A model generated the notes under the pieces. The model saw nothing but the letters and a program-made list of their open reading frames with translations, did no database searches and was not told where the DNA came from. Positions 23,438 through 58,947 of a stretch of DNA of 64,000 nt are shown here, piece after piece. The translations under genes and the position numbers were made by a program. Origin of the DNA: a virus; IMG/VR virus record IMGVR_UViG_3300035703_000058, positions 1-64,000 of that record, one strand, 5' to 3'. Positions within the stretch are counted from its first letter, which is position 1. Every line of letters begins with the position of its first letter.

Positions 23438-24305
23438 GCCCTTCGTCCGCTGGGTCGGCGGTTCACAGCGGTCGCTCGGGGCGCTGCGCGAGCGCCTGCC
23501 CGCCGATGCGGCGCGGCGCCGCTACGTGGACCCCTTCCTCGGTGGCGGCGCGCTGCTGTGGGCGCTGAAGCCCCGGCGGGCGCTGGTCTCCGATGCGTGC
23601 GCCCCGCTGATCGCGGCGTGGCGCGCGCTGCGCGATGCGCCCGAAGAGCTGCTGCGCGAGCTGGCGGTGCTGCAGGCGCTGCGTGAGACGACCGACCTGC
23701 CGAGCTGGTATCGGCTCGTGACCGACCTGCTCGGGCAGGACGGCACCGACGTCGAGCGCGGCGCCCGGCTGATCGCCGTGAACAGGTCCTGCTACAACGG
23801 GCTGTGGCGGGAGAACGGATCGGGTCGGTTCAACGTGGCGCTCGACCCGGCGTCGGCCAAGCGCGACCTCGTGCGGGCGGACCTGCTGCGGGGCTGTGCG
23901 GCGGTGCTCGGCACCATGGACATCGAGGTCTACGCTCGGTCTTGGGAGGCCACCGTCGAGGCGGCCGGGTCGGGTGATTTCGTCTACGCCGACCCGCCCT
24001 ATGACGCTGAGGTAGACGAGGGCGCCCAGCCCAGCCTGATCGGTGGCCCGCCCGCCGTCGAAGGGCACCGCTACACCGCCGCCGGTTGGATTCGCGGCGA
24101 CCTGGTGCGCCTGGCGGACGCCCTCGCTGTGGCCCGGGACCGCGGCGCCTACGTTCTCAGCACGAACAACCCCACCACCTTCGCCGTCCAGCTCTTCGAG
24201 GCCCGCGGCTTCCGCTTCGACGTGGTGCAGACGCCGCGCTCGGTCAGCCGCGATGGGGCCGGTCGCGGAGTGGTGAATGAGCTTATCGCCGTGGGGGTGC
24301 CGTGA
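23430..24305 (+). CDS. dam: Dam-like (D12 class) DNA adenine methyltransferase
   Basis: RWVGG, YVDPFLGGGA, YNGLWR.N..G.FNV, FVYADPPY. Confidence 0.9.
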   Translation: MAEPFVRWVGGSQRSLGALRERLPADAARRRYVDPFLGGGALLWALKPRRALVSDACAPLIAAWRALRDAPEELLRELAVLQALRETTDLPSWYRLVTDLLGQDGTDVERGARLIAVNRSCYNGLWRENGSGRFNVALDPASAKRDLVRADLLRGCAAVLGTMDIEVYARSWEATVEAAGSGDFVYADPPYDAEVDEGAQPSLIGGPPAVEGHRYTAAGWIRGDLVRLADALAVARDRGAYVLSTNNPTTFAVQLFEARGFRFDVVQTPRSVSRDGAGRGVVNELIAVGVP

Positions 24306-25399
24306 TCCCACTCTACACCAGCCGCCGCACGTCCGCCTATTTCGGTGACTGCCGCGACGTGCTCGCCCACCTGATCGCCAAGCGCGGGGCCTTCGCCTCG
24401 ATGGCTTGGATCGACGGCCCCTACGGCATGGGCAAGGGCGAATGGGATCGGCTCACCGGCGCGCGGCACAACCGGAGTGCGGTCCCTGACGAGGCGGTGG
24501 AGGCGCGCGTCTCCCGCTATGTGGACCTGCTCTCGGACCTCGACCCGGACGGCGCCGACCTCGCCGCGTGGTACGCGCCCGTGCTGTATAGGATCTCGGC
24601 GGCGTGCCTCCAGTCGGCGAGTGCCTACGTCTGGAACACGGACGCGGGCGAGGCGGTGTTGCGCCCGATCATGCAGGCGCTTGGGTGGACGTTCCGGGGG
24701 CGGGTGACTTGGGACAAGATGACCACCAAGGCACTCATCGGTGCCAATGACATGCGGACCTGGCTGGACGTCACCGAGGTCTGCGGCTTCTACCAGCGGG
24801 AGCCGGCGGATCTGTTCGAGGCCCTTGCGAGTCGGATGTGCTCAGAGCGTGACCGTGTTGGCGTGAGCCGGGCCGCGATCGATGCTGCTGCTGGTACGTC
24901 GAATGTCTCGCAGTACTGGTGGCAGTCGCGAGGCTGGAGGCTTCCCACCCGCCCGATGTGGGACATCCTACAGCGTGTTTCCGGCGGGTTCCGCTGGGAT
25001 TGGGAGGACTTGAGGCGCGAGGAGGAGGGGGTCCGTGCGGCATGTCCGGCCTTCTCTGCCCCCATCGGCGTCTCCAACGTTTGGCGCCACAACGCCGTGA
25101 GCGGGTCGGAGCGGTTGCGCATCAACGGCGAGGCCCACCCCTGCCAGAAGCCGCTCGCGTTCGCTGAGCGCGCCATCCTCGCCAGCACGCGCCCCGGCGA
25201 AGTCGTGTTGGATCCCTTCGCTGGGACTTGCCGCTGTGCCGTCGCTGTCGAGCGCCTGCCCGCCTCCGAAGCCCGCGAGGTGGTCAGCATCGACACGGAC
25301 CGATGCTGGCTCGAAGCCGTGCGGCCCTCGCTCCTGAGCGATCCGATGGCGACCGCGACCGCGGCGCAACCCTCACTGTTCGGAGGCTCTCGTGAGTAG
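24302..25399 (+). CDS. beta-class N4/N6 DNA methyltransferase with inserted HTH
   Basis: GDC, IDGPY, HPCQKP, VLDPFAGT. Confidence 0.8.
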   Translation: MIPLYTSRRTSAYFGDCRDVLAHLIAKRGAFASMAWIDGPYGMGKGEWDRLTGARHNRSAVPDEAVEARVSRYVDLLSDLDPDGADLAAWYAPVLYRISAACLQSASAYVWNTDAGEAVLRPIMQALGWTFRGRVTWDKMTTKALIGANDMRTWLDVTEVCGFYQREPADLFEALASRMCSERDRVGVSRAAIDAAAGTSNVSQYWWQSRGWRLPTRPMWDILQRVSGGFRWDWEDLRREEEGVRAACPAFSAPIGVSNVWRHNAVSGSERLRINGEAHPCQKPLAFAERAILASTRPGEVVLDPFAGTCRCAVAVERLPASEAREVVSIDTDRCWLEAVRPSLLSDPMATATAAQPSLFGGSRE

Positions 25400-28455: not shown

Positions 28456-29678
28456 CTGCTCCCCCCCGCTACGAGATGCGCGCTGCGGCTGTCGCCGCAA
28501 TCAAGCCGCGGTCATGCTTGGTGGTCTACCTCGTGCTGGTGGACCGGCTCGGCGACAACGCGACCTGCTGGCCCAAGGTCGGGTCCATCATGGCGGACAC
28601 CGGCTGTGCCGAGCGCACCGTGCAGGCCGCCCTTCGCGTGTTGGAGCAGACCGGCTGGATCGCGCAGGTCAAGGACAGCGACCGTCGGGCCAACGAGTAC
28701 AGCCTGCACATCGGGGGCGCCATCGAGCGCGTCACGAAGGCGAGGGACGCGCACGAGGTTGCACCCGATGGTGCAGCCGATTGCACCCCTGCTGAGGCGC
28801 AAGGGATTGCACCCATGGGTGCAGCCGATTGCGCCGATGGGTGCAATCCGTTGCGGCTTGGGGTGCAATCCGCTGCACCCGAACCTGTCCATGAACACCT
28901 ACAAGAACAAGAAATAACTCCAAAACGCGCCTGTGTGCCCACACACGCACACGAGGCCCCCTCGCAGCCCGCCCAACTCAGCCTCACGCCGGAGCCGCAA
29001 CCGGCACCCAAGCCGCAGCCCCAGTCGCAGCCCAAGCGACCGTCGAAGCCACAGCCCCCGAAGCCGGAGCCGCTGGACCCGGCGGTGTGGGATCGCTTCG
29101 CCGCGCTGGCCGTCGAGTCGGGCCAGGTCGGCAAGCTCCCGGAGCCCGGGGCGCAAAGCTACCAGAAGGGCAAGACCCGGGCCGACGTGCTGGCCGCGCT
29201 GGTGGCCGAGCACGGCGCCGAACGGGTGCTGGCGGTCTGGCGGCACACGCTGACCTCGCCGCGGAAGGACCCGACGTGGTGGCGAACGAACCGCGAAGGA
29301 CCCTCGCTGATCGGCGCATTCCTGGCCGGGGAAGCGTTTCAGAAGCTCGCCGACGACCTGGAGGCGGCCCAATCGCGGGTCGCCAAGCCCAAGCTCGTCT
29401 CGGTGCTCACCCTTGATGGCTTGCACCCGATCGACAAGCTCGTCGCGGTGATCCGCCAGTTCGGCGACGAGCCGCCCGCGGAGGAGGTCACCCGGGCCGC
29501 GTGCGGCACCGCCGAGCACTTCGCCGACGTGGTCGAGGCGGCGCGCTACGTCGGCCGCTGGGGCGGCGGCAGGGGCACCGTGCGGGCCGGGTGGTATCAA
29601 ATCTACCAGAACCCGAGTAGCGCGGCGGACTTTCGTAAGGATTGGGATCGCGCCCAGCCGATGCGGCAGGCCCAATGA
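28452..29678 (+). CDS. phage replication initiator (N-terminal wHTH)
   Basis: CWPKVGSIMADTGCAERTVQAALRVLEQTGWI; precedes DnaB. Confidence 0.8.
   Translation: MTAPPRYEMRAAAVAAIKPRSCLVVYLVLVDRLGDNATCWPKVGSIMADTGCAERTVQAALRVLEQTGWIAQVKDSDRRANEYSLHIGGAIERVTKARDAHEVAPDGAADCTPAEAQGIAPMGAADCADGCNPLRLGVQSAAPEPVHEHLQEQEITPKRACVPTHAHEAPSQPAQLSLTPEPQPAPKPQPQSQPKRPSKPQPPKPEPLDPAVWDRFAALAVESGQVGKLPEPGAQSYQKGKTRADVLAALVAEHGAERVLAVWRHTLTSPRKDPTWWRTNREGPSLIGAFLAGEAFQKLADDLEAAQSRVAKPKLVSVLTLDGLHPIDKLVAVIRQFGDEPPAEEVTRAACGTAEHFADVVEAARYVGRWGGGRGTVRAGWYQIYQNPSSAADFRKDWDRAQPMRQAQ
28759..28925. repeat. iteron-like cluster, candidate replication origin
   Basis: About 8 copies of (T/C)TGCACC(C) in both orientations, then an A-rich tract. 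Confidence 0.6.
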
Positions 29679-50879: not shown

Positions 50880-51239
50880 CTTCTCAGGCCGCTGGACGGG
50901 CCACGCAGCCCTCGGTCGACTGGCTGTCCCGCGCGCCCACCGCTTCGCGAGCTTCAACGCCATCGCGCCCGGACGTCGGCTGCTCGTGCTGGGCAGCACC
51001 TCAGCGGCCACGGCATTCCAGGACCCGAGCCGGACGAACGCCTCGTAGCACCGCGCCCCCGTCAAGCGCCCCGGCGGCCACGGCAGCCCGGCGAGTTGGG
51101 CGTATTCGAGGGCCAGCCGCCGGGCAGTGGCCCGGGGCACGTCCAACCGACCCGCGGCGCCGGTCAGCGAGCACCCGGCGACCATGAGCGCGTACAGGCG
51201 CTGACCGGTGTCCGGTGGATGCAGGCGCGGGCGGGTCAA
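50877..51239 (-). CDS. small HTH-like protein, last gene of the csf operon
   Basis: SLTGAAGRLDVPRATARRLA; TTGA overlap with the cysH stop. Confidence 0.55.
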   Translation of the reverse strand: MTRPRLHPPDTGQRLYALMVAGCSLTGAAGRLDVPRATARRLALEYAQLAGLPWPPGRLTGARCYEAFVRLGSWNAVAAEVLPSTSSRRPGAMALKLAKRWARGTASRPRAAWPVQRPEK

Positions 51240-52075
51240 GATACCGCCCGAACAGCCGGATCGATGTCGGCGGCGAGCTGCCACAGGTCGGGCCACCAGC
51301 GGCGCAGCCATGCGTAATGGCTGCCAATCGTCGCGGGCAGACCGCCCACGACCCACCAGCTCTTGCGCAGAGACAGCGCATCCATCCCCGGGTCAACGCA
51401 CAGATAGCAGGGCAGCAACGGCACCTGCTCGCGAACCAGGAAGGCGTGAACGTCGAGCGCGCTCCAGGCGGCGATGGGCTGGGCCACCGTGAGCCCGTCC
51501 TTGCGCCTGTAGACGCTGCCGCGGGTGGCGTTCATGGCGCGCCCCCGGCTCTCGCCAGCCCTCAGCCCGAGCAGCGCGCCATCGTAGCCATGGTGTAGAC
51601 GATGGGCGTTCAGCAGCCCATAGAAGTGCTCGGCGCTCAGCTCGGCGGTTCTGCCGTGGTGGTCGTTCAGCAGCGACCGCTGCCCGGCGAGCACCGACCA
51701 CAGCGACACACCGGGGCTCAGGATGTCCAGGTGCAGGCCAAGATGGCGGCAAAGGTGCTCGATGTAGGCCCGTTCGCCGGGGTAATCGAGGTCGTCCTTG
51801 ACGCTCACGGCGGGCGGGTGCCAACCATGCAGGGCCAGCAGCGCCGCCATGGCTGAGCTGTCCTTGCCGCCGCTCAGGCTCGCGCACCAACCCACCGACA
51901 CCGCCGCGGCCGCATCCAGCGCCCGTCGCGCGACTGTGATCTTGTGGTCCATGGCTCGGGAGCGCGCGTGCAACGCCACCGCCCGCCACGGATAGTGCAG
52001 GCCCACATCCGAACGCCCGGGCAACGCACCATCGCCGCACCAGGCGATGATCTGGCGGAGCCAGTCAGTCCTCAT
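51236..52075 (-). CDS. cysH: CysH/PAPS-reductase-like PP-loop protein (type IV-B associated)
   Basis: SLSGGKDS, LGLRAGES..R, PIAAWS..DV. Confidence 0.85.
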   Translation of the reverse strand: MRTDWLRQIIAWCGDGALPGRSDVGLHYPWRAVALHARSRAMDHKITVARRALDAAAAVSVGWCASLSGGKDSSAMAALLALHGWHPPAVSVKDDLDYPGERAYIEHLCRHLGLHLDILSPGVSLWSVLAGQRSLLNDHHGRTAELSAEHFYGLLNAHRLHHGYDGALLGLRAGESRGRAMNATRGSVYRRKDGLTVAQPIAAWSALDVHAFLVREQVPLLPCYLCVDPGMDALSLRKSWWVVGGLPATIGSHYAWLRRWWPDLWQLAADIDPAVRAVS

Positions 52076-52658
52076 CGACCATCTCCCAGGCGCCGGAGAA
52101 CTCGACGTTGCGGAACAGCTCGGCGACCCCGGTCACCTGCTTGTAGCGGTAGATGGTGTCCAGGTCCACACCCAGGGCCAGGGCGATCTGTTCGTCCTCC
52201 ATGCCCTGCTCGCACATCCGGCGTATCAGGTCGGCGTCGAGGTCCACCTGATGCACGCCGCGGGCCTTGTTGAACTGCCACGTCGCCGCCAGCCGCCGCG
52301 ACAGATCGTGCGGCAACACCACCACGGGCAGGTAGTCACAGTCCAGCCAGTCCGGCCCCAGCACCATCTTGCGGTGGGCGCCGTCGATGACCACGAACAG
52401 GCGCTGCTCAGGATCGAACACGGTGACGATGGGAAAGCAAAACCCGTTGTCGAGCACCGACTGGAGCAGCAGCTCCATCTTGTCGGGGCTCACGCTGTTG
52501 GGGTTGTAGAAATTCTCGACTACCAGCTCCGCACGAACCAGCACGGCGCGCAGGCAGGGCACCGGAATGCGTCCGCGGGTCTTGGAGGTGATGTAGGCGC
52601 CCTCCGACCCCCCAGCGCGCCACGCCTCGAAGTCGGCCATCGTGTCGATCCTGAGCAT
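52065..52658 (-). CDS. ibrB: IbrB-like ParB/Srx-domain protein
   Basis: N.YNPNSV...MELL..S...GF..PIV; IDGAHR; NKARG.H; C-terminal HTH. Confidence 0.85.
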   Translation of the reverse strand: MLRIDTMADFEAWRAGGSEGAYITSKTRGRIPVPCLRAVLVRAELVVENFYNPNSVSPDKMELLLQSVLDNGFCFPIVTVFDPEQRLFVVIDGAHRKMVLGPDWLDCDYLPVVVLPHDLSRRLAATWQFNKARGVHQVDLDADLIRRMCEQGMEDEQIALALGVDLDTIYRYKQVTGVAELFRNVEFSGAWEMVDED

Positions 52659-53791
52659 CAGAGCACCTCGGCGTAATGGGCGATGAGCGCGTCGCGGGGG
52701 TCGGCCTTGTTGTCAACCGGCAGGTTGTTCTCGTAGTCGTTGAGAACGAGCTGGCGGCATTGCTGCCGGGCCACGAACTCATTGTCCAGGTGCCCGCCGA
52801 ACCGGCGACGTAAGATGTCCGCCTTGGCCGGATCCGGGTGGGTCGCCAACAGGAAATCGCGGTAGACCCGCCACGAACGAAAGTTCTTCGGCAGCTTGCG
52901 GCATCGAAACAGCGTCGCCGCCTTGGCCGTTTCCTGCGCAAGCGCAATGCCCCTGATGCGCTTCTGCAGCCGCGCGTAGGTCTTGGGCTCAAAGGCAGGC
53001 AGGTCGGCCAGCGCGCGAAAGCTGCGCTCGTGTATGAGCGAAGACACTCGCCGCTCGCCCAGCGGGTAGCCCATCTTGTGCTGGAAGTCGTAGACCCTGG
53101 AGTACCTGAGCCCCTCCATGGCGATGTACTTCCAGACATCGTGCGCGTTCCAGTCGTAGATCGGGTAGAGCGTGACGGTGCTCGCCCGGCGTGTGCCCCA
53201 ATAGACGCGCTGGCCGTCGCCGATCTCGATGGGGTGCTTGGTGACCGCGCGCCAGCGGTTCGGGCTCTCTCCGGCGGCGCGCAGGCCGACCAGAAAGGCG
53301 TGGCCGGGGTAGCAGCGGGCGAAAGTCTCGATCACGTCGTAGAAGCCAAAGCCCTTGTTCCGGTCGCGCACGGTGACCTGCTCGGGCGCCCACGGTGGGT
53401 GCTGGATGGCGTCGCGCTCCTTTGCGCGCATCCAGGTTTTGTGCTCCCCCGGCTCCCAGGCGTTGAGCTGACCTTCGGTCAGGCTGGTCGCGTTGGTGAG
53501 GCGGAAAGGCACCTGAAGCCACAGCGGCCGCGTGTTCTCCGGGTACAGCGCCATCAGGTAGCGCACCTGCTCAACGCTGCTCTGGTACATGACCTCCTCA
53601 TCGAGCAGGTGTACGCCGATGCGCAGCCCCCGGCGGTTGGCCTCCACCAAGGCAAGATGAGCCAACACGGTGCTGTCCTTGCCGCCGCTCACGCTGACGA
53701 TCACCTTGTCGCCGAAGGCGTCGAAGACCATGCGGACACGGCGCTGGGCAGCGGCGAGCACGGTCTCACCCGTGTAGTGCTGTCGCGACAT
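52658..53791 (-). CDS. ibrA: IbrA-like PAPS-reductase-domain protein
   Basis: VL.AA..R, SVSGGKDS, DEE, GLRA..ESPNR, YPIYDW...DVW, NDY. Confidence 0.88.
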   Translation of the reverse strand: MSRQHYTGETVLAAAQRRVRMVFDAFGDKVIVSVSGGKDSTVLAHLALVEANRRGLRIGVHLLDEEVMYQSSVEQVRYLMALYPENTRPLWLQVPFRLTNATSLTEGQLNAWEPGEHKTWMRAKERDAIQHPPWAPEQVTVRDRNKGFGFYDVIETFARCYPGHAFLVGLRAAGESPNRWRAVTKHPIEIGDGQRVYWGTRRASTVTLYPIYDWNAHDVWKYIAMEGLRYSRVYDFQHKMGYPLGERRVSSLIHERSFRALADLPAFEPKTYARLQKRIRGIALAQETAKAATLFRCRKLPKNFRSWRVYRDFLLATHPDPAKADILRRRFGGHLDNEFVARQQCRQLVLNDYENNLPVDNKADPRDALIAHYAEVL

Positions 53792-54668
53792 CGCGCACCC
53801 TCCCAGCCCACGCGGTGTAACGGTCGAAGTACCAGCGGTCTACGGCGAGATCCGACACCAGCAGGGTGGCGTTGGCCTGACGGGTCACGGCCAGCGCGTC
53901 GGCGTAGTCGACGAAGTTGTGGGGGACCTCCAACAACAGGCGCGCACGGTCGTCGGCCACGTCGCGAAAGGTGGCCACATCACCACCAAGACGCTGGTTG
54001 CGGGCGAGGTAGGCGTGTCCGTTCAAGGCGCGAAATCGAGCACCACCCCCGACAAGCGCAAGGTTGCGGGGCAGGACGTGGGGGTCCTTGTCGCCGTCTT
54101 CACGCAGCTCGGCGAGCAGGCGTGCCTTCGTCGCGGCGTATGTCGCTTTGGTTCTGGCGTCGGTCTCCACAGCGCGCACGGTGAAGGCGGGCAACAGCGA
54201 ACGACCCACCACCCGCACCTCAGAGAGCATCGACGGCGCGAAGGCGTCGCGCTTCCACTTCGACCGCGTGACCCAGTCGATGAGGATCATGACGTCGTCG
54301 GGCTCGGCGATGATTGGCAAGGTCTGAAAGACCAGGACGTGCGGCGTGCGCTGGAGGTAGTTGCGCAGGCAGTTGTAGCCGAGATCGTGCCGGTTCTGCG
54401 TGCGCAATCCTTCATTGACCACGATCAGGGTGTCGGGGTCGATCCGCTCCAACAGCGGGTAGTAGTACCGGTACATGACGATGTTGGGCCAGTCGATGAA
54501 CAGGCCGGGCGCGCCGATCTCGGTGCTGGGGTCCAGCAGCTCACGATCCCAGCCAGGCAGGCAGAACCGGCGCGGCGTGAAGACGACGACCTTGGTGAGC
54601 CCGCGCTCCACCATCGTCGCGCGGATCATCTCGGCGCGCTCGACGGGGGTGTGGCCCAAGCAGATCAC
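53766..54668 (-). CDS. hypothetical protein, possibly a degenerate SNF2/SF2 ATPase-like fold
   Basis: LIVVNEGLRTQNR and VLVFQTLPII..PDDVMILIDW; GTGA coupling. Confidence 0.55.
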   Translation of the reverse strand: MICLGHTPVERAEMIRATMVERGLTKVVVFTPRRFCLPGWDRELLDPSTEIGAPGLFIDWPNIVMYRYYYPLLERIDPDTLIVVNEGLRTQNRHDLGYNCLRNYLQRTPHVLVFQTLPIIAEPDDVMILIDWVTRSKWKRDAFAPSMLSEVRVVGRSLLPAFTVRAVETDARTKATYAATKARLLAELREDGDKDPHVLPRNLALVGGGARFRALNGHAYLARNQRLGGDVATFRDVADDRARLLLEVPHNFVDYADALAVTRQANATLLVSDLAVDRWYFDRYTAWAGRVRDVATALHG

Positions 54669-55315
54669 GGGGTCACCGTGTAGCCGCGCCTGACCAACCA
54701 GGCGACCGTCCTGGCCAACCGCTTCGGGTTCAGTTCGCTCCCGATGGCGTTCAGCCCGTAGTGGTGGGCCATGCGGCTGGTCATTCCCAAGCCCATGCAG
54801 GGGTCGCACACCCAGTCGCCGGGCGTGAGGGCGAGCCCATCAAAGACGCGGCGGGTCATCGCCTCACCGTGCAGGCCGGTGGGGTCCGTGACGATGGGGG
54901 TGCGGCCGAAGTGCAGCAGCAGGTTGGGCAGCAGGCGAGAACCGCTGCCGTAGAGGACCGCGTAGCGCCCGATGTCCGGCAGCATCCACCCTGGCAGGGT
55001 GCCGGCCACGTCCAGCAGCATGCCGTGGTGCTTCGGGTTGGTCGCCTGCTCCACCAGGACGTCGTCCGCGCCCCGGGCCATGCACGCCACGGCCACCGAG
55101 CACCACGCGCGGAGAAAGGCGTCGTAGGAGTCGCACCGCTCGCGACCCGCGTGGGTGCGCCAGTAGGTCGCGTTGCCAGGGTTCCAGGGCGGATCGCTGT
55201 AGACCAGACGGACACGATCGGGAAGGTGTGCCTGATACCACGCCAGCGTGGTCGGGTCTTGCAGGTCCCCACACAGCAAGAGCTGGCGTTGCTGCCCGCG
55301 GGTGCAAACGTACAT
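54665..55315 (-). CDS. compact beta-class amino (N4/N6) methyltransferase
   Basis: LLCGD, VYSDPPW, VCDPCMGLG.T, GSELN. Confidence 0.8.
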   Translation of the reverse strand: MYVCTRGQQRQLLLCGDLQDPTTLAWYQAHLPDRVRLVYSDPPWNPGNATYWRTHAGRERCDSYDAFLRAWCSVAVACMARGADDVLVEQATNPKHHGMLLDVAGTLPGWMLPDIGRYAVLYGSGSRLLPNLLLHFGRTPIVTDPTGLHGEAMTRRVFDGLALTPGDWVCDPCMGLGMTSRMAHHYGLNAIGSELNPKRLARTVAWLVRRGYTVTP

Positions 55316-55317
55316 GC

Positions 55318-56028
55318 TCACTCCGACGGGCGCGCCTGCCAGCACGCCACCCGCTGCCCGCCGTAGTAGGGCGGACGCAGCGGCAGAAGGGTTTGGACGG
55401 TGTGGGCGGGTGGATTGGACGCCCGCCCCACGGGGAGGTGTCGGAGCCGCACATCGTCGAGGTAGTCGCCCGGGGCGGGACCGCCCACGGCGACCCGCCA
55501 GCCATCAACCCAGCCGATGCCATGGCAGCCCAACCCGCCGATCGCCGGCACCGGCGCGAGCAACCTGCCGAGCTGGTCCAGCGGCGCCAGATCCCAGCCG
55601 AGCGTGCGGTTGACCTCGCCGACGCGGGCCTCGTCCAGCACGCCGGTCCACACCAGCTCGCGGCACGCCGCCCACAGGTGCTTGCGCACGCGCAGGCTCT
55701 TGTCGGGGCCAGCCTTCATGTCCACGGGCCCGCCGGCCCGATGGCGCATGTACCAGTCCACAGGTGCCCGGCGGTGCAGGTGGTGGGTGCGTTCAGGCCC
55801 GACCGGCGCCGCCTGAGAGGCTGCCCACCACCACAGACCCCCGTCGGCGACAACCGCCGCGAACGGCAGCAGGTCCCATACACGCGGGTTGTAGGCCGGG
55901 TGGGCGACCGGGTCCAGCCGATTCAGCCACATCGCCAGCCCAACCCCCGCGAGCGCGTCCAACATCGGCGGGTTGGGCAGGTTCGGCCCGGGCGGGCGCA
56001 GCGCCGCCGTGACGGTGACCGGAATCAC
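55318..56028 (-). CDS. csf3: Csf3 (Cas5-like RAMP), type IV
   Basis: VTA.L...LDA.A; GPDKS.R; Gly-rich loop IGGLGCHGIG.V..W; C-terminal LRPPY. Confidence 0.75.
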   Translation of the reverse strand: MIPVTVTAALRPPGPNLPNPPMLDALAGVGLAMWLNRLDPVAHPAYNPRVWDLLPFAAVVADGGLWWWAASQAAPVGPERTHHLHRRAPVDWYMRHRAGGPVDMKAGPDKSLRVRKHLWAACRELVWTGVLDEARVGEVNRTLGWDLAPLDQLGRLLAPVPAIGGLGCHGIGWVDGWRVAVGGPAPGDYLDDVRLRHLPVGRASNPPAHTVQTLLPLRPPYYGGQRVACWQARPSE

Positions 56029-57053
56029 GACAGCCACGCCAGGATGCGGTCGCGGCGGTCGGCCAGATGTGCCCGCAGCGCCCCCGCACACTGCTCGTCC
56101 GCGGCGTCCATGGTCGCCACCGGGGCGGCGTCGGTCACCGTGAAGGGCGCCGCCGGTTCGAGCTGCCAGGCGCCCCGCACGCGCACCGACAGGGCACCGA
56201 AGTTCTCCCGGGCCACACCGCCCACACGGGCGCCTGAGCGAATCCAGTCCGCGATCGCCAGCAGCAGCGTCCACAGCTCCACCTCGGTGGCGTTCACCAG
56301 CCGGACCTCGCCGATCAGCGGCACCCCCGCGGAGATCGCCTCGTAGGCGTAGGGCATGGACTCGTTGGCCCGGCGGCGCTCCACCGCGCCCACCTTGCCC
56401 CCACCGGCCCGCCGCTCGGCCAGCACACCTGCGTGGACGGCCTGCACCCGCTCGTCCACCGCGAGCAGGAGCGCGGCCGTGGAAGAGCTGGCGAGATCAT
56501 GGCGATATCGCTGTTCGGTGTGGGTGGCCTGCGCAAGCGCAACGGGGCCGCGCCGATCTGCAAACACCGGCTCGGCGCGCCCGTCGATGGTCGCCACCGC
56601 CGGCTGCAGCCCCGCCGCGACGGCCTCCTGTGCCCACACCGCGAGCCCCGCCACCTGCACGGCGCCGCGGTTGGGTGTGCCGGCGTCCATCGACCCGAAC
56701 ACGCCCAGCAGGGGGCAATTCTGCCGCAGCTCCCACTGCTCCAGGGCGTTGTACCCGCCGACGTCGCCCTTCTCGTAGCGCCCGCCCTTCAGCAGCAGGC
56801 GCAGCCGGTCCCGGCCCAACTGCTCGATGCCCAACTCGGCGAGGTAGCGGGCGACGGCGTGCTCGCGCAGCGTCGCCTTGAGCGCCGCCCCGGACAGCAT
56901 CGGCACCAACAACTCCCGGTAGTCGCCGAGCGTGTCATCCCACACCACCATGCGCTGCCGGCGCAGCACCTGCTCGTTGCCCTCGGTGCTCTCGCCGTGC
57001 GCGAGCGGGGCGAGGGTGACGGCGGTGAGGTGAAACACGTAGGAGGCGATCAT
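56025..57053 (-). CDS. csf2: Csf2 (Cas7-like backbone RAMP), type IV
   Basis: TLAPLAHG, VPMLSG..LK..LR, L.KGG, PLLGVFG, M.Y.YE.I..G, VGG....FG. Confidence 0.85.
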   Translation of the reverse strand: MIASYVFHLTAVTLAPLAHGESTEGNEQVLRRQRMVVWDDTLGDYRELLVPMLSGAALKATLREHAVARYLAELGIEQLGRDRLRLLLKGGRYEKGDVGGYNALEQWELRQNCPLLGVFGSMDAGTPNRGAVQVAGLAVWAQEAVAAGLQPAVATIDGRAEPVFADRRGPVALAQATHTEQRYRHDLASSSTAALLLAVDERVQAVHAGVLAERRAGGGKVGAVERRRANESMPYAYEAISAGVPLIGEVRLVNATEVELWTLLLAIADWIRSGARVGGVARENFGALSVRVRGAWQLEPAAPFTVTDAAPVATMDAADEQCAGALRAHLADRRDRILAWLS

Positions 57054-57580
57054 GCGGACTCTCCGGGCGGTGTGGAAACCAAAAGGGCCGGCCTGGAAAG
57101 GTTTCCGGGCTGGCCGGCAAGCGAATCCGGGGCCGCGGCAAGATCGCGCACCAGCTCGCGGGCGACGTTGGCGAGGGTCAACGCGACGGGCAGCGTGGTG
57201 CCGCCAAGCAGGGCAGCGACGTGGCGGCCCGGCTGGGCGTCGGCGGCGCGCACCCACAGCGTCTCGTCATCGCTGAGCCAGCGCCCACCCCGCATGCCCA
57301 GCTTCTCCCCGAGCTTGACGGCCAACTCGTGCAGGCTTCTCGGGCTGGTTCGGGCGACGGCGCGCACCCGGGCCTCAAAGGCGTCGCGGTTCTCGTGATG
57401 CGGCTTGGACCGCCGCAACACCGCGTCGGCGGCGAAGGCGCGGCTCCAGGCCAACGCGAGCACCACGGTCAACTCGGCGCCACCCATGCGGCGCTCCCGC
57501 GCGTCGAAGCCAAGCGCGGGGTTGTCGGCGATGGGGCCGATGTCGCCCACGGCGACCGCGTAGAGGTCAAGGTGACGCAT
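57050..57580 (-). CDS. cas11: Cas11-like small subunit, type IV-B
   Basis: Helical ~176 aa protein between csf1 and csf2 (assigned by position). Confidence 0.55.
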   Translation of the reverse strand: MRHLDLYAVAVGDIGPIADNPALGFDARERRMGGAELTVVLALAWSRAFAADAVLRRSKPHHENRDAFEARVRAVARTSPRSLHELAVKLGEKLGMRGGRWLSDDETLWVRAADAQPGRHVAALLGGTTLPVALTLANVARELVRDLAAAPDSLAGQPGNLSRPALLVSTPPGESA

Positions 57581-58565
57581 CGCGGCCTCGCAGTTCGCCG
57601 ACAGGGCGGCGCAGATAGAGGGCGAGGTCCAGCAACGGGCGGTGCCGATGCTTGGCGATCGTGGGCCCATGCTGGGCGATCAGCGGCAGCGCCTCTGCCC
57701 CGCCGCTGTAGGCGCCGCTGACGAGGGCCTCTTCGCGCACCCCCGCCAGCAACAGGGCCTCGATGGCTTCGATCAGCCGCGCGAGTGTCGGCGCCCTGTA
57801 GGTGATGCTCTGCCCGGCGAACCAGACGACCCGCGGCGCGCCCGGCCGCCACTGCTCGGGCATCGCGAAAAGCGCGCAATGCTTCTTCTCGACGCTCAGC
57901 ACGTTGGCGCCGAGGTGGCCGCCGTCGAGGTCGTCGCGCAGCAGGTGGCGACGCATCGCGGGCTTCTCGGCGTCGGTCATCGGGCGCCAGCGCGGCATGC
58001 CGTTCGGGTCGGGCAACGTGACGTGGTGCCAGACGAAGAACCGCTGCTCCAGCCCCGGAGCGAGGCGGTCGGCCGGGTAGGCGCCGACGTAGCGGACGGG
58101 GCCAACGTCGCCGGGCGCGACGCGCTGGCGGTCGAGCTGTGCGGCCCACGCATCCTCCGCGCTCTTCGGCGTCGCGGGCGTCCACAGCCCGATCGTGCCG
58201 TCCGCAAGCTCCAGCACGAGGCGCTTCTGTGCGGGCGCGCCGTCGATGCAGACCTCGGTGCGCCGGTTGCCCCGCCAGGCCAACGTGGCACGCTCCCGCA
58301 GACGCTCGGCCGCGAGCGACCCGGGCAACGCAAAGCCACTCGCCAGCGTCCACCCACAGGCGGCGCACAGGTGGGTCGCGTGGCCAGCCCGGGCGAAGTC
58401 ACGGGCCGGAAACGTGTCGGGCAGCAACCGCAGCGGCCACCCCTCGCCGGACGCATTCACCCCACACCACCAGCAGGGACCGGTGTAGGCGGTAAAATCG
58501 GGATGTGTGGGGCGGCCTGCGGCCTCCCACAGCACCCATGTCGCGCTCGGCATCATGTAGGCCAT
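57567..58565 (-). CDS. csf1: Csf1 (Cas8-like large subunit), type IV
   Basis: N-terminal CWWCG...CAAC zinc motif; KKH motif; heads the csf cluster. Confidence 0.7.
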   Translation of the reverse strand: MAYMMPSATWVLWEAAGRPTHPDFTAYTGPCWWCGVNASGEGWPLRLLPDTFPARDFARAGHATHLCAACGWTLASGFALPGSLAAERLRERATLAWRGNRRTEVCIDGAPAQKRLVLELADGTIGLWTPATPKSAEDAWAAQLDRQRVAPGDVGPVRYVGAYPADRLAPGLEQRFFVWHHVTLPDPNGMPRWRPMTDAEKPAMRRHLLRDDLDGGHLGANVLSVEKKHCALFAMPEQWRPGAPRVVWFAGQSITYRAPTLARLIEAIEALLLAGVREEALVSGAYSGGAEALPLIAQHGPTIAKHRHRPLLDLALYLRRPVGELRGRDASP

Positions 58566-58596
58566 GTACCCCAACGGGCCACAACGCGCAACCCTG

Positions 58597-58947
58597 CTAC
58601 TCGGCGACCGACACCGCCCCCGCCAGCCACGGCCCAAGCGGCGGCGGCAGCTTCGCCGCGTACAGCGCCAGCACCGCGGCGTCCACCACCTCGTCGTGGC
58701 CGGCATCGCGCAGCCCACGCCCCAGCCCGGCGAGCGCCACCACCAACAGGGACAACAGATCCAGGTTAGCCCGCGCCGCAGACGCCAACAGGCGCCCGAT
58801 CGGGGTGTCGTCGAGCGTCATCCCGTAGACGACATCGGCGATGACGATGGCGTCGCGGGGGTCGTCGGGATCGTGGGGACCCAGCTCGGGCTGGGTCGCG
58901 CCAGGGCAACCGTGGATCAGGTCGGTCAACTCGCACAGGTCGTACAT
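58597..58947 (-). CDS. hypothetical protein, first gene of the csf operon
   Basis: GAGG RBS; ORF MYDLCEL... Confidence 0.5.
   Translation of the reverse strand: MYDLCELTDLIHGCPGATQPELGPHDPDDPRDAIVIADVVYGMTLDDTPIGRLLASAARANLDLLSLLVVALAGLGRGLRDAGHDEVVDAAVLALYAAKLPPPLGPWLAGAVSVAE

Follow-up and report, generated by a model that had tools for sequence, protein, structure and literature searches.

A block of four genes in the genome of an uncultured phage appears to encode a single nucleic-acid-marking complex that works, depending on the phage, with one of two alternative DNA-engaging partners. The block was found in the window, that is, in the 64,000 nucleotides (positions 1 to 64,000) of the IMG/VR virus record IMGVR_UViG_3300035703_000058 that were analyzed here, and it comprises the genes for a small methyltransferase with the catalytic motif DPPW (MTase), a SNF2-like protein (mini-SNF2, written iSNF2 in gene orders), IbrA and IbrB. 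In this phage, the block is enclosed by the genes of a type IV-B Csf complex and a cysH-like gene, whereas most related blocks have a gene for a full SNF2 helicase at their upstream side. We assign a probability of roughly 0.55 to the reading that the four-gene core acts as one nucleic-acid-marking complex together with one DNA-engaging partner, which would be either the helicase or Csf/CysH, according to the phage.

According to this proposal, mini-SNF2 would be an inactivated adaptor, IbrA would adenylate the substrate, IbrB would be a nucleotide-binding helix-turn-helix protein of the ParB/Srx type (binding a nucleoside triphosphate), and MTase would be an N6-adenine/N4-cytosine methyltransferase. 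Acting together as one complex, the four proteins would place a chemical mark on nucleic acid, and the probable target would be the DNA of the phage itself. One further partner that engages DNA would be required by the core. In most phages, this would be an active SNF2 helicase whose gene lies just upstream of mini-SNF2 or is fused to it; in this phage, it would be the array-less type IV-B Csf complex together with the CysH-like enzyme. The methylase would take its target choice from IbrB or mini-SNF2 and not specifically from Csf; Csf, like the helicase, would serve the cassette as a whole.

Conservation of the four-gene core

Loci for comparison were recovered by scanning genome contigs with an alignment of mini-SNF2 (9 loci) and viral contigs with IbrA (73 loci), and all six-frame open reading frames (ORFs) of the recovered loci were searched with iterated profiles. 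The four-gene core was seen again in about 78 other loci from viruses or metagenome-assembled genomes (MAGs), and the hosts implied by the MAGs are Pseudomonadota, Acidobacteriota, Chloroflexota, Myxococcota and Bacillota. Essentially all loci that either have an IbrA with more than 50% identity or were found through mini-SNF2 contain all three genes for mini-SNF2, IbrA and IbrB, and there is one DPPW methylase gene per locus, which is located directly upstream of mini-SNF2 or directly downstream of IbrB. This recurrence indicates that the four genes are no peculiarity of this phage but an autonomous mobile core, which is conserved at the heart of a mobile phage cassette.

Gene pairs of the IbrA/IbrB type are common in phages (PMC4541368; PMC9068703). 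The pair of the window consists of adjacent, coupled genes and has the same two domains as the ibrAB island of E. coli, YbdN/YbdM of E. coli K-12 and the protein families phrog_2302 and phrog_2159. In contrast to IbrAB of E. coli and of cultured phages, however, the pair is always accompanied by mini-SNF2 and the DPPW methylase, both here and in the roughly 78 related loci. Cultured phages contain only distant homologues of IbrA (at most 35% identity), and neither a DNA search of cultured phages nor a tblastn search of them with mini-SNF2 gave a match. In some viral contigs, parts of the cassette are duplicated in tandem, so that two IbrA-IbrB pairs or two mini-SNF2-IbrA-IbrB units are present (L021:8001-11249, L022, L067:4790-9643, L072); the second IbrA copy in these loci is about 45-50% identical to the IbrA of the window.

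Alternation of a SNF2 helicase and the Csf proteins

In one of the related loci (L004), the ORF that is coupled upstream of mini-SNF2 encodes a true SNF2 helicase, with the Pfam domains SNF2-rel_dom and Helicase_C. With a helicase profile derived from this locus, an intact SNF2 helicase was found directly upstream of mini-SNF2 in 53 loci, and the motif GxGK[ST] was present in 47 of 47 cases. Csf2 and Csf3, usually together with a cysH-like gene, were found in 18 loci, and spot checks with PADLOC agreed with these assignments. The two sets nearly exclude one another: among the 78 loci in which mini-SNF2 could be resolved, 52 have only the helicase, 16 only Csf genes, one has both, and nine have neither (mostly loci with short flanks), for which Fisher's test gives p = 1.7e-9 if shared ancestry is ignored. 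The same picture emerges from the loci whose flanks are 5 kb or longer on each side (helicase only 23, Csf only 8, both 1, neither 2; p = 2e-5). In the phage of the window, profile scans of the operon gave no match to SNF2 or any other helicase, and SNF2-rel_dom had no match across the whole 75-kb genome.

Mini-SNF2 and the full SNF2 helicase can also be fused in one polypeptide of 752-1144 amino acids (L078, 5756-8023; clusters P0123, P0137 and P0138). These fusions were found by an exhaustive profile search, while a word-index search for longer forms of mini-SNF2 gave none. The natural fusions suggest which protein is the docking point, and the loci taken together represent a natural substitution experiment, in which Csf and CysH are found where the SNF2 helicase normally stands.

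The Csf, cysH and cassette genes occur in at least five distinct orders. Setting the cassette in square brackets, the order is csf1-(cas11)-csf2-csf3-[MTase-iSNF2-IbrA-IbrB]-cysH in the window and in L010, and csf1-csf2-csf3-[iSNF2-IbrA-IbrB-MTase]-cysH in L075. In L016 it is csf2-cysH-[MTase-iSNF2-IbrA-IbrB]-csf3, and in L017 and L018 csf2-cysH-[iSNF2-IbrA-IbrB]-MTase-csf3. The cassette stands last in L041 and L045 (csf2-csf3-cysH-[iSNF2-IbrA-IbrB-MTase]) and first in L037 ([cassette] … csf2-cysH-csf3-csf3), and in L013 it is accompanied by cysH-csf3-csf2 on the opposite strand.

A reverse search that started from a Csf2 protein led to 31 phage type IV-B loci. Two of them end after csf2; csf3 is present in all 29 that have sequence downstream of csf2, and cysH in 28 of these 29. 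Three of the 31 contain the full cassette, and a further seven contain IbrA-IbrB alone right after cysH (10/31 together). The loci with only the IbrA-IbrB pair belong to an unrelated Firmicutes-type phage lineage, in which the pair follows csf2-csf3-cysH and neither mini-SNF2 nor the methylase is present. In L097 (4267-7297), which represents a low-GC phage lineage, the csf-cysH-IbrA-IbrB genes directly precede a sigma-like gene and the gene for the small terminase subunit, as was confirmed with Pfam. The pattern that results from the reverse search is hard to explain by chance co-location. A functional link between Csf and the cassette is supported by gene context, namely by the recurrent co-location, the interleaved gene orders and the near mutual exclusion of Csf and the SNF2 helicase.

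It could be argued that no functional link exists at all and that the Ibr cassette is one accessory module and the type IV-B set another, both of which collect in the same variable region of phage genomes. Phage accessory islands gather unrelated genes, both modules are mobile and often found alone, and few phylogenetically independent events are left after correction. However, translational coupling exists at every junction, and the cassette has been placed between csf3 and cysH (window, L075), between cysH and csf3 (L016, L017, L018), after cysH (L041) or on the opposite strand (L013). In addition, loci in which the csf genes leave the position of the helicase free, such as L013 and L037, also lack it, and the pairing with csf genes recurs in a second subfamily of IbrA. 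A merely accidental neighborhood is, in our judgment, unlikely.

The mini-SNF2 protein

A preliminary description of this DNA had labeled the product of the second cassette gene SNF2-like, and with respect to fold and descent this label is right. The AlphaFold2 (AF2) model of the 300-aa protein, which is based on 24 homologues and has a predicted local distance difference test (pLDDT) score of 94.6, consists of two RecA-like lobes with SNF2-type topology. In a structure comparison with VIA, the model matches CSB (Z 18.8, root-mean-square deviation 3.4, 288 of the 300 residues aligned), SWR1 (Z 17.1) and INO80 (Z 16.6), and Foldseek retrieves ISW1 (3e-8). The features of the ESM language model point toward SNF2-related clusters, and an alignment with the neighboring SNF2 helicases using hhalign gave an E value of 1.9e-4 and a probability of 47%. 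The sequence of mini-SNF2 had no match in Pfam (including SNF2-rel_dom and Helicase_C), NCBIfam, PHROG or PADLOC.

The ATPase motifs, however, are degenerate. The canonical Walker A motif GxGK[ST] and the Walker B motif DExH are missing; the family has LGxxxxEK at the position of Walker A and VVNE(C/G)LRTQN, with N or H replacing Asp, at that of Walker B. The hhalign alignment pairs GTGKT of the helicases with LGxxxxEK of mini-SNF2, and DES with NEC. Judged from this degeneration, mini-SNF2 is probably not an ATPase. An invariant GRNxR pair (R223, R226) is present in the family and is possibly motif VI.

The family is conserved and comprises proteins of 285-315 aa; 54 homologues were found in one search, and 216 clusters at 50% identity are contained among 1.84 billion representatives. 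Single-protein scans of viral contigs with mini-SNF2 and with Csf2 of the window found nothing, and comparison of the mini-SNF2 profile, IbrA, IbrB and the cysH-like protein with the PDB by sequence gave nothing useful.

A methyltransferase without a target-recognition domain

The MTase, with 216 aa, is a beta-class amino-methyltransferase: its motif IV (DPPW, residues 41-44) lies N-terminal to motif I (DPCMGLG, residues 171-177), which binds S-adenosylmethionine, and this is the order of the beta class. It matches Pfam N6_N4_Mtase (PF01555) with 29.6 bits (cut-off 26.7), and this domain is matched by 19 of 27 members of the cassette methylase family. The AF2 model (pLDDT 96.9) has the fold of M.MboIIA (Z 17.5), M.BceJIV (Z 17.0), CcrM (Z 15.9) and M1.HpyAVI (Z 15.9), with lower values for MT-A70 enzymes (Z 10.9-11.8), and between 172 and 190 of the 216 residues align with the cores of M.MboIIA, M1.HpyAVI and M.RsrI. 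In this model, only a 12-residue loop (138-149) is found where beta-class enzymes carry their target-recognition domain (TRD), in agreement with the earlier remark that there is almost no TRD. The enzyme shares fold and motif order with beta-class enzymes such as M1.HpyAVI and M.MboIIA, but is even shorter than M1.HpyAVI in the TRD region. With MT-A70 complexes (METTL3-METTL14, Tetrahymena MTA1c) it has the catalytic motif DPPW in common, but by sequence it is not a member of that family and matches only PF01555. The methylases of all cassettes form a single family of 170-220 aa, with DPPW in 60 of 74 and a motif I of the form D(L/P)CMG(R/K)G near the C-terminus.

Thus, the MTase is a bare catalytic core, which makes target selection by a partner plausible. 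Catalytic subunits of the MT-A70 type depend on partner subunits for substrate binding. It should be noted, however, that the solved small beta-class methylases have a sequence specificity of their own, so that small size alone is no proof of partner dependence, and the cassette methylase may be self-sufficient in specificity.

The preliminary description had proposed that the specificity is supplied in trans, possibly by the Csf ribonucleoprotein. While a target chosen by a partner is plausible, Csf is not supported as the source, as the same methylase family serves 52 cassettes without Csf genes. In its full form, this idea holds that the Csf ribonucleoprotein is the missing target-recognition module of the methylase and that DNA or RNA is methylated in an RNA-guided or RNA-scaffolded manner. 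In its favor, the methylase has no TRD and starts 2 nt past the csf3 stop codon; moreover, the closest relative, L010, has retained the csf3-MTase junction, and the clade of upstream-position methylases is Csf-linked in 6 of its 10 members. Yet, the DPPW methylase family adjoins IbrB or mini-SNF2 in nearly all of the roughly 78 cassettes, including those without Csf. In the MTase tree, the Csf-linked methylases are polyphyletic, the Csf label needs 6-11 changes, and the nearest outside relative of the methylases of the window and L010 (L021, 51% identity) belongs to a Csf-free, helicase-type cassette. Furthermore, the whole cassette separates the methylase from the csf genes in many Csf-linked loci, there is no CRISPR array, and the published type IV-B complex bound heterogeneous RNA (PMC7937560). 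A role of Csf as the recognition module of the methylase therefore appears distinctly unlikely. IbrB and mini-SNF2 are the constant neighbors of the methylase and thus a more economical source, and it is more likely that its specificity comes from one of these two than from the Csf complex.

IbrA, IbrB and the cysH-like protein

IbrA (377 aa) combines a PP-loop ATP pyrophosphatase domain (SVSGGKDS) with DUF3440; the Pfam scores are 38.1 bits for PAPS_reduct (cut-off 22.5) and 29.5 bits for DUF3440 (cut-off 25), and the match to phrog_2302 has a value of 5.6e-69. More than 90 alignment columns show conservation in 95% or more of 81 sequences; a Cys does not occur among them. IbrB (197 aa) has an N-terminal ParB/Srx-like domain (DGAHR, 92-96) and a C-terminal helix-turn-helix of the resolvase type. 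It matches the ParB-like family phrog_2159 (3.3e-35) over residues 16-195 and HTH_7 with 23.4 bits, just below the cut-off of 23.8, and D92, G93, H95 and R96 are conserved (82 sequences). Pfam ParB_N gives no signal with IbrB of the window but is reported for the homologue in L097. The cysH-like protein (279 aa) is of the CasCysH type, with a PAPS_reduct score of 41.6 bits and the PP-loop SGGKDS.

The catalytic cysteine motif ECGxH was looked for in IbrA and the cysH-like protein and is present in neither. The scores with the CysH equivalog models are far under the cut-offs (TIGR00434, 22.7 versus 165.1 bits; NF002537, 27.1 versus 154), the same is true for the CysD equivalog model and for the DndC equivalog TIGR03183 (16.5 versus 290.4 bits), and in PADLOC, DndC and BrxP reach only marginal scores (24 and 19 bits). 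The lack of an invariant or ECGxH cysteine and these low scores make sulfate assimilation and phosphorothioation of the Dnd type unlikely. Three assignments were thus rejected: membership among the assimilatory reductases of 3'-phosphoadenosine-5'-phosphosulfate (PAPS) or adenosine-5'-phosphosulfate; Dnd-type phosphorothioation, for which a desulfurase or SMC-like gene is also missing from the operon; and membership in BREX type 4, for which there is only the marginal BrxP match. Other PP-loop enzymes use ATP to adenylate their substrate, and by analogy the probable reaction of IbrA is adenylation of an oxygen of its substrate, which would later be substituted.

Evaluation of the proposed mechanism

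Several points weigh against a marking complex with exchangeable partners. The Csf-negative assignments rest on flanks of about 7-8 kb, and one locus (L031) carries both the helicase and Csf. The Csf label needs 6-9 changes on the IbrA tree, and of the approximately five ancestry-independent contrasts the helicase changes in the opposite direction in about four and in the same direction in none, for which p is 0.125 in an underpowered sign test. RNA or a small molecule might serve as the substrate. Most published plasmid type IV-B loci have been described with cysH only (PMC8175902; 10.1101/780106), so that type IV-B systems can in general do without the Ibr cassette. Lastly, E. coli IbrAB has, as cited in PMC4541368, been reported only to activate the expression of prophage eib genes, and the role could thus be regulatory instead of modifying.

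This last point leads to the view that the cassette switches on other genes of the phage or host instead of protecting DNA by a mark, for example through a ParB-like, DNA-bound activator, with which the helix-turn-helix of IbrB would be in accord. It is improbable for several reasons: IbrA is conserved like an enzyme and has an intact PP-loop, the constant partners of the pair are a methylase that looks catalytically intact and a SNF2 helicase, and gene activation could itself follow from DNA modification. That IbrA and the cysH-like protein are auxiliary PAPS reductases that boost sulfate assimilation of the host, as the Pfam PAPS_reduct matches and the PHROG labels of both as auxiliary metabolic genes might suggest, is extremely improbable in view of the cysteine and equivalog results and because the genes are always linked to DNA-binding or DNA-modifying partners.

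The marking complex with exchangeable partners remains the reading that we prefer. A bolder version of it, which we put forward tentatively and regard as doubtful, would be that the array-less type IV-B Csf ribonucleoprotein and CasCysH are a targeting or DNA-engaging device that has repeatedly replaced a SNF2 translocase as the delivery arm of a machine for phage DNA modification, composed of the mini-SNF2 adaptor, IbrA, IbrB and the methylase without TRD, and that type IV-B directs chemical marking of nucleic acid and not interference.

Relation to known systems

The set csf1-csf2-csf3 plus a cysH-like gene, with a candidate cas11 between csf1 and csf2, corresponds to subtype IV-B with CasCysH, as exemplified by the Csf complex of Mycobacterium sp. 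JS623 (PMC7937560, PMC8175902). Further shared traits are the location on a mobile element and the lack of an array, of Cas6 and of a nuclease or helicase; the phage differs by the enzyme cassette of four genes between csf3 and cysH. The presence of type IV-B in viruses was already known. Published accessory genes of type IV-B are cysH and, in a figure legend, an ADP-ribosyltransferase and an N6-methyltransferase (10.1101/270033), while no mention of IbrA, IbrB, ParB or SNF2 was found in type IV reviews and surveys, and a literature search found no paper on this cassette or its link with type IV-B.

Ever since subtype IV-B was defined, its function has been an open question, for which published work offers the cysH-like gene as the only clue. 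The locus described here and its relatives provide type IV-B with defined enzyme partners, namely IbrA, IbrB, a probably inactive SNF2-like adaptor and a methylase without TRD, and the IbrA/IbrB (YbdN/YbdM) family, whose members the literature treats as lacking an assigned function, gains a fuller genetic context.

The Dnd, Ssp and BREX type 4 systems (DndB and DndC; BrxP) also combine, for the modification of DNA, a ParB/Srx protein, a PP-loop enzyme of the PAPS-reductase family and an ATPase (PMC12839542). In contrast to them, a cysteine desulfurase is missing here, and IbrA has no conserved cysteines.

Operon and type IV-B genes of the phage

The record is a complete genome of 75,417 bp, of which the window covers 64 kb; it carries direct terminal repeats and has a GC content of about 70%. 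Tail and baseplate genes on the plus strand end at about 50.8 kb, and an operon of nine genes runs on the minus strand from about 58.7 to 51.2 kb (Table 1), in the order csf1, cas11-like, csf2, csf3, MTase, SNF2-like, IbrA, IbrB and cysH-like. The segment 52065-55315, which had been set apart beforehand as a coupled block, comprises exactly the four middle genes between csf3 and the cysH-like gene, and inspection of start codons and ribosome-binding sites bears out the coupling for the entire operon: all nine genes overlap or abut, and ribosome-binding sites are present. The third-position GC content singles out one frame per gene, with values of 0.81-0.86 for the four cassette genes. A scan of the operon for promoters and terminators yielded matches at chance level, so there is no evidence of an internal promoter before the cassette.

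Table 1. Genes of the nine-gene operon, in order of transcription (positions in the window)
Gene	Position	Strand	Start, overlap and profile matches
csf1 (type IV Cas8-like)	57567..58706	-	PADLOC typeIV_Cas8 3.2e-8; start uncertain
cas11-like small subunit	57050..57670	-	assigned by position only; start probably 57580; ATGA overlap with csf2
csf2 (type IV Cas7)	56025..57053	-	PADLOC typeIV_Cas7 1.4e-31; NCBIfam cas7_csf2 weak
csf3 (type IV Cas5)	55318..56037	-	PADLOC typeIV_Cas5 8.1e-10; start 56037 or 56028
MTase	54665..55315	-	ATG 55315; GGAG ribosome-binding site; 2 nt past csf3 stop (55318)
SNF2-like (mini-SNF2, iSNF2)	53766..54668	-	GTG 54668; GTGA overlap with MTase stop
IbrA	52658..53791	-	ATG 53791; GGGAGG ribosome-binding site; 26-nt overlap with SNF2-like gene
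IbrB	52065..52658	-	ATG 52658; TGATG overlap with IbrA
cysH-like	51236..52075	-	ATG 52075; 11-nt overlap with IbrB; final operon gene

The gene content is that of subtype IV-B, with csf1, csf2, csf3 and a cysH-like gene present and an array, Cas6, DinG and RecD absent; in the search for a CRISPR array, no array-like repeats were found. The ORF at 57050-57670 has the place (between csf1 and csf2) and the size of cas11 and no profile match, while the homologous position in L018 matches typeIV_Cas11. In that locus (L018:5066-6364), a frame of 433 aa contains a type IV Cas11 match at residues 65-165 and a Cas7 match at 207-432; this frame may represent a fusion of Cas11 with Csf2, or else two separate genes that appear as a single ORF. 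Three Csf-linked cassette loci (L037, 13083-14497; L038; L040) contain two tandem csf3 (Cas5) paralogues after cysH, which were confirmed with PADLOC.

The window contains a second, larger N6_N4 DNA methyltransferase at 24281-25399 on the plus strand, a 372-aa ORF with a Pfam score of 57.2 bits over 24566-25258, and the DPPW methylase is therefore not the sole methylase of the phage. At 28759-28880 of the window, a 22-nt unit is repeated in tandem about five times. This period is too short to be that of a CRISPR array; the core of the unit is a near-palindrome (TTGCACCC.ATGGGTGCA), and the repeats may bind a protein or form a series of stem-loops.

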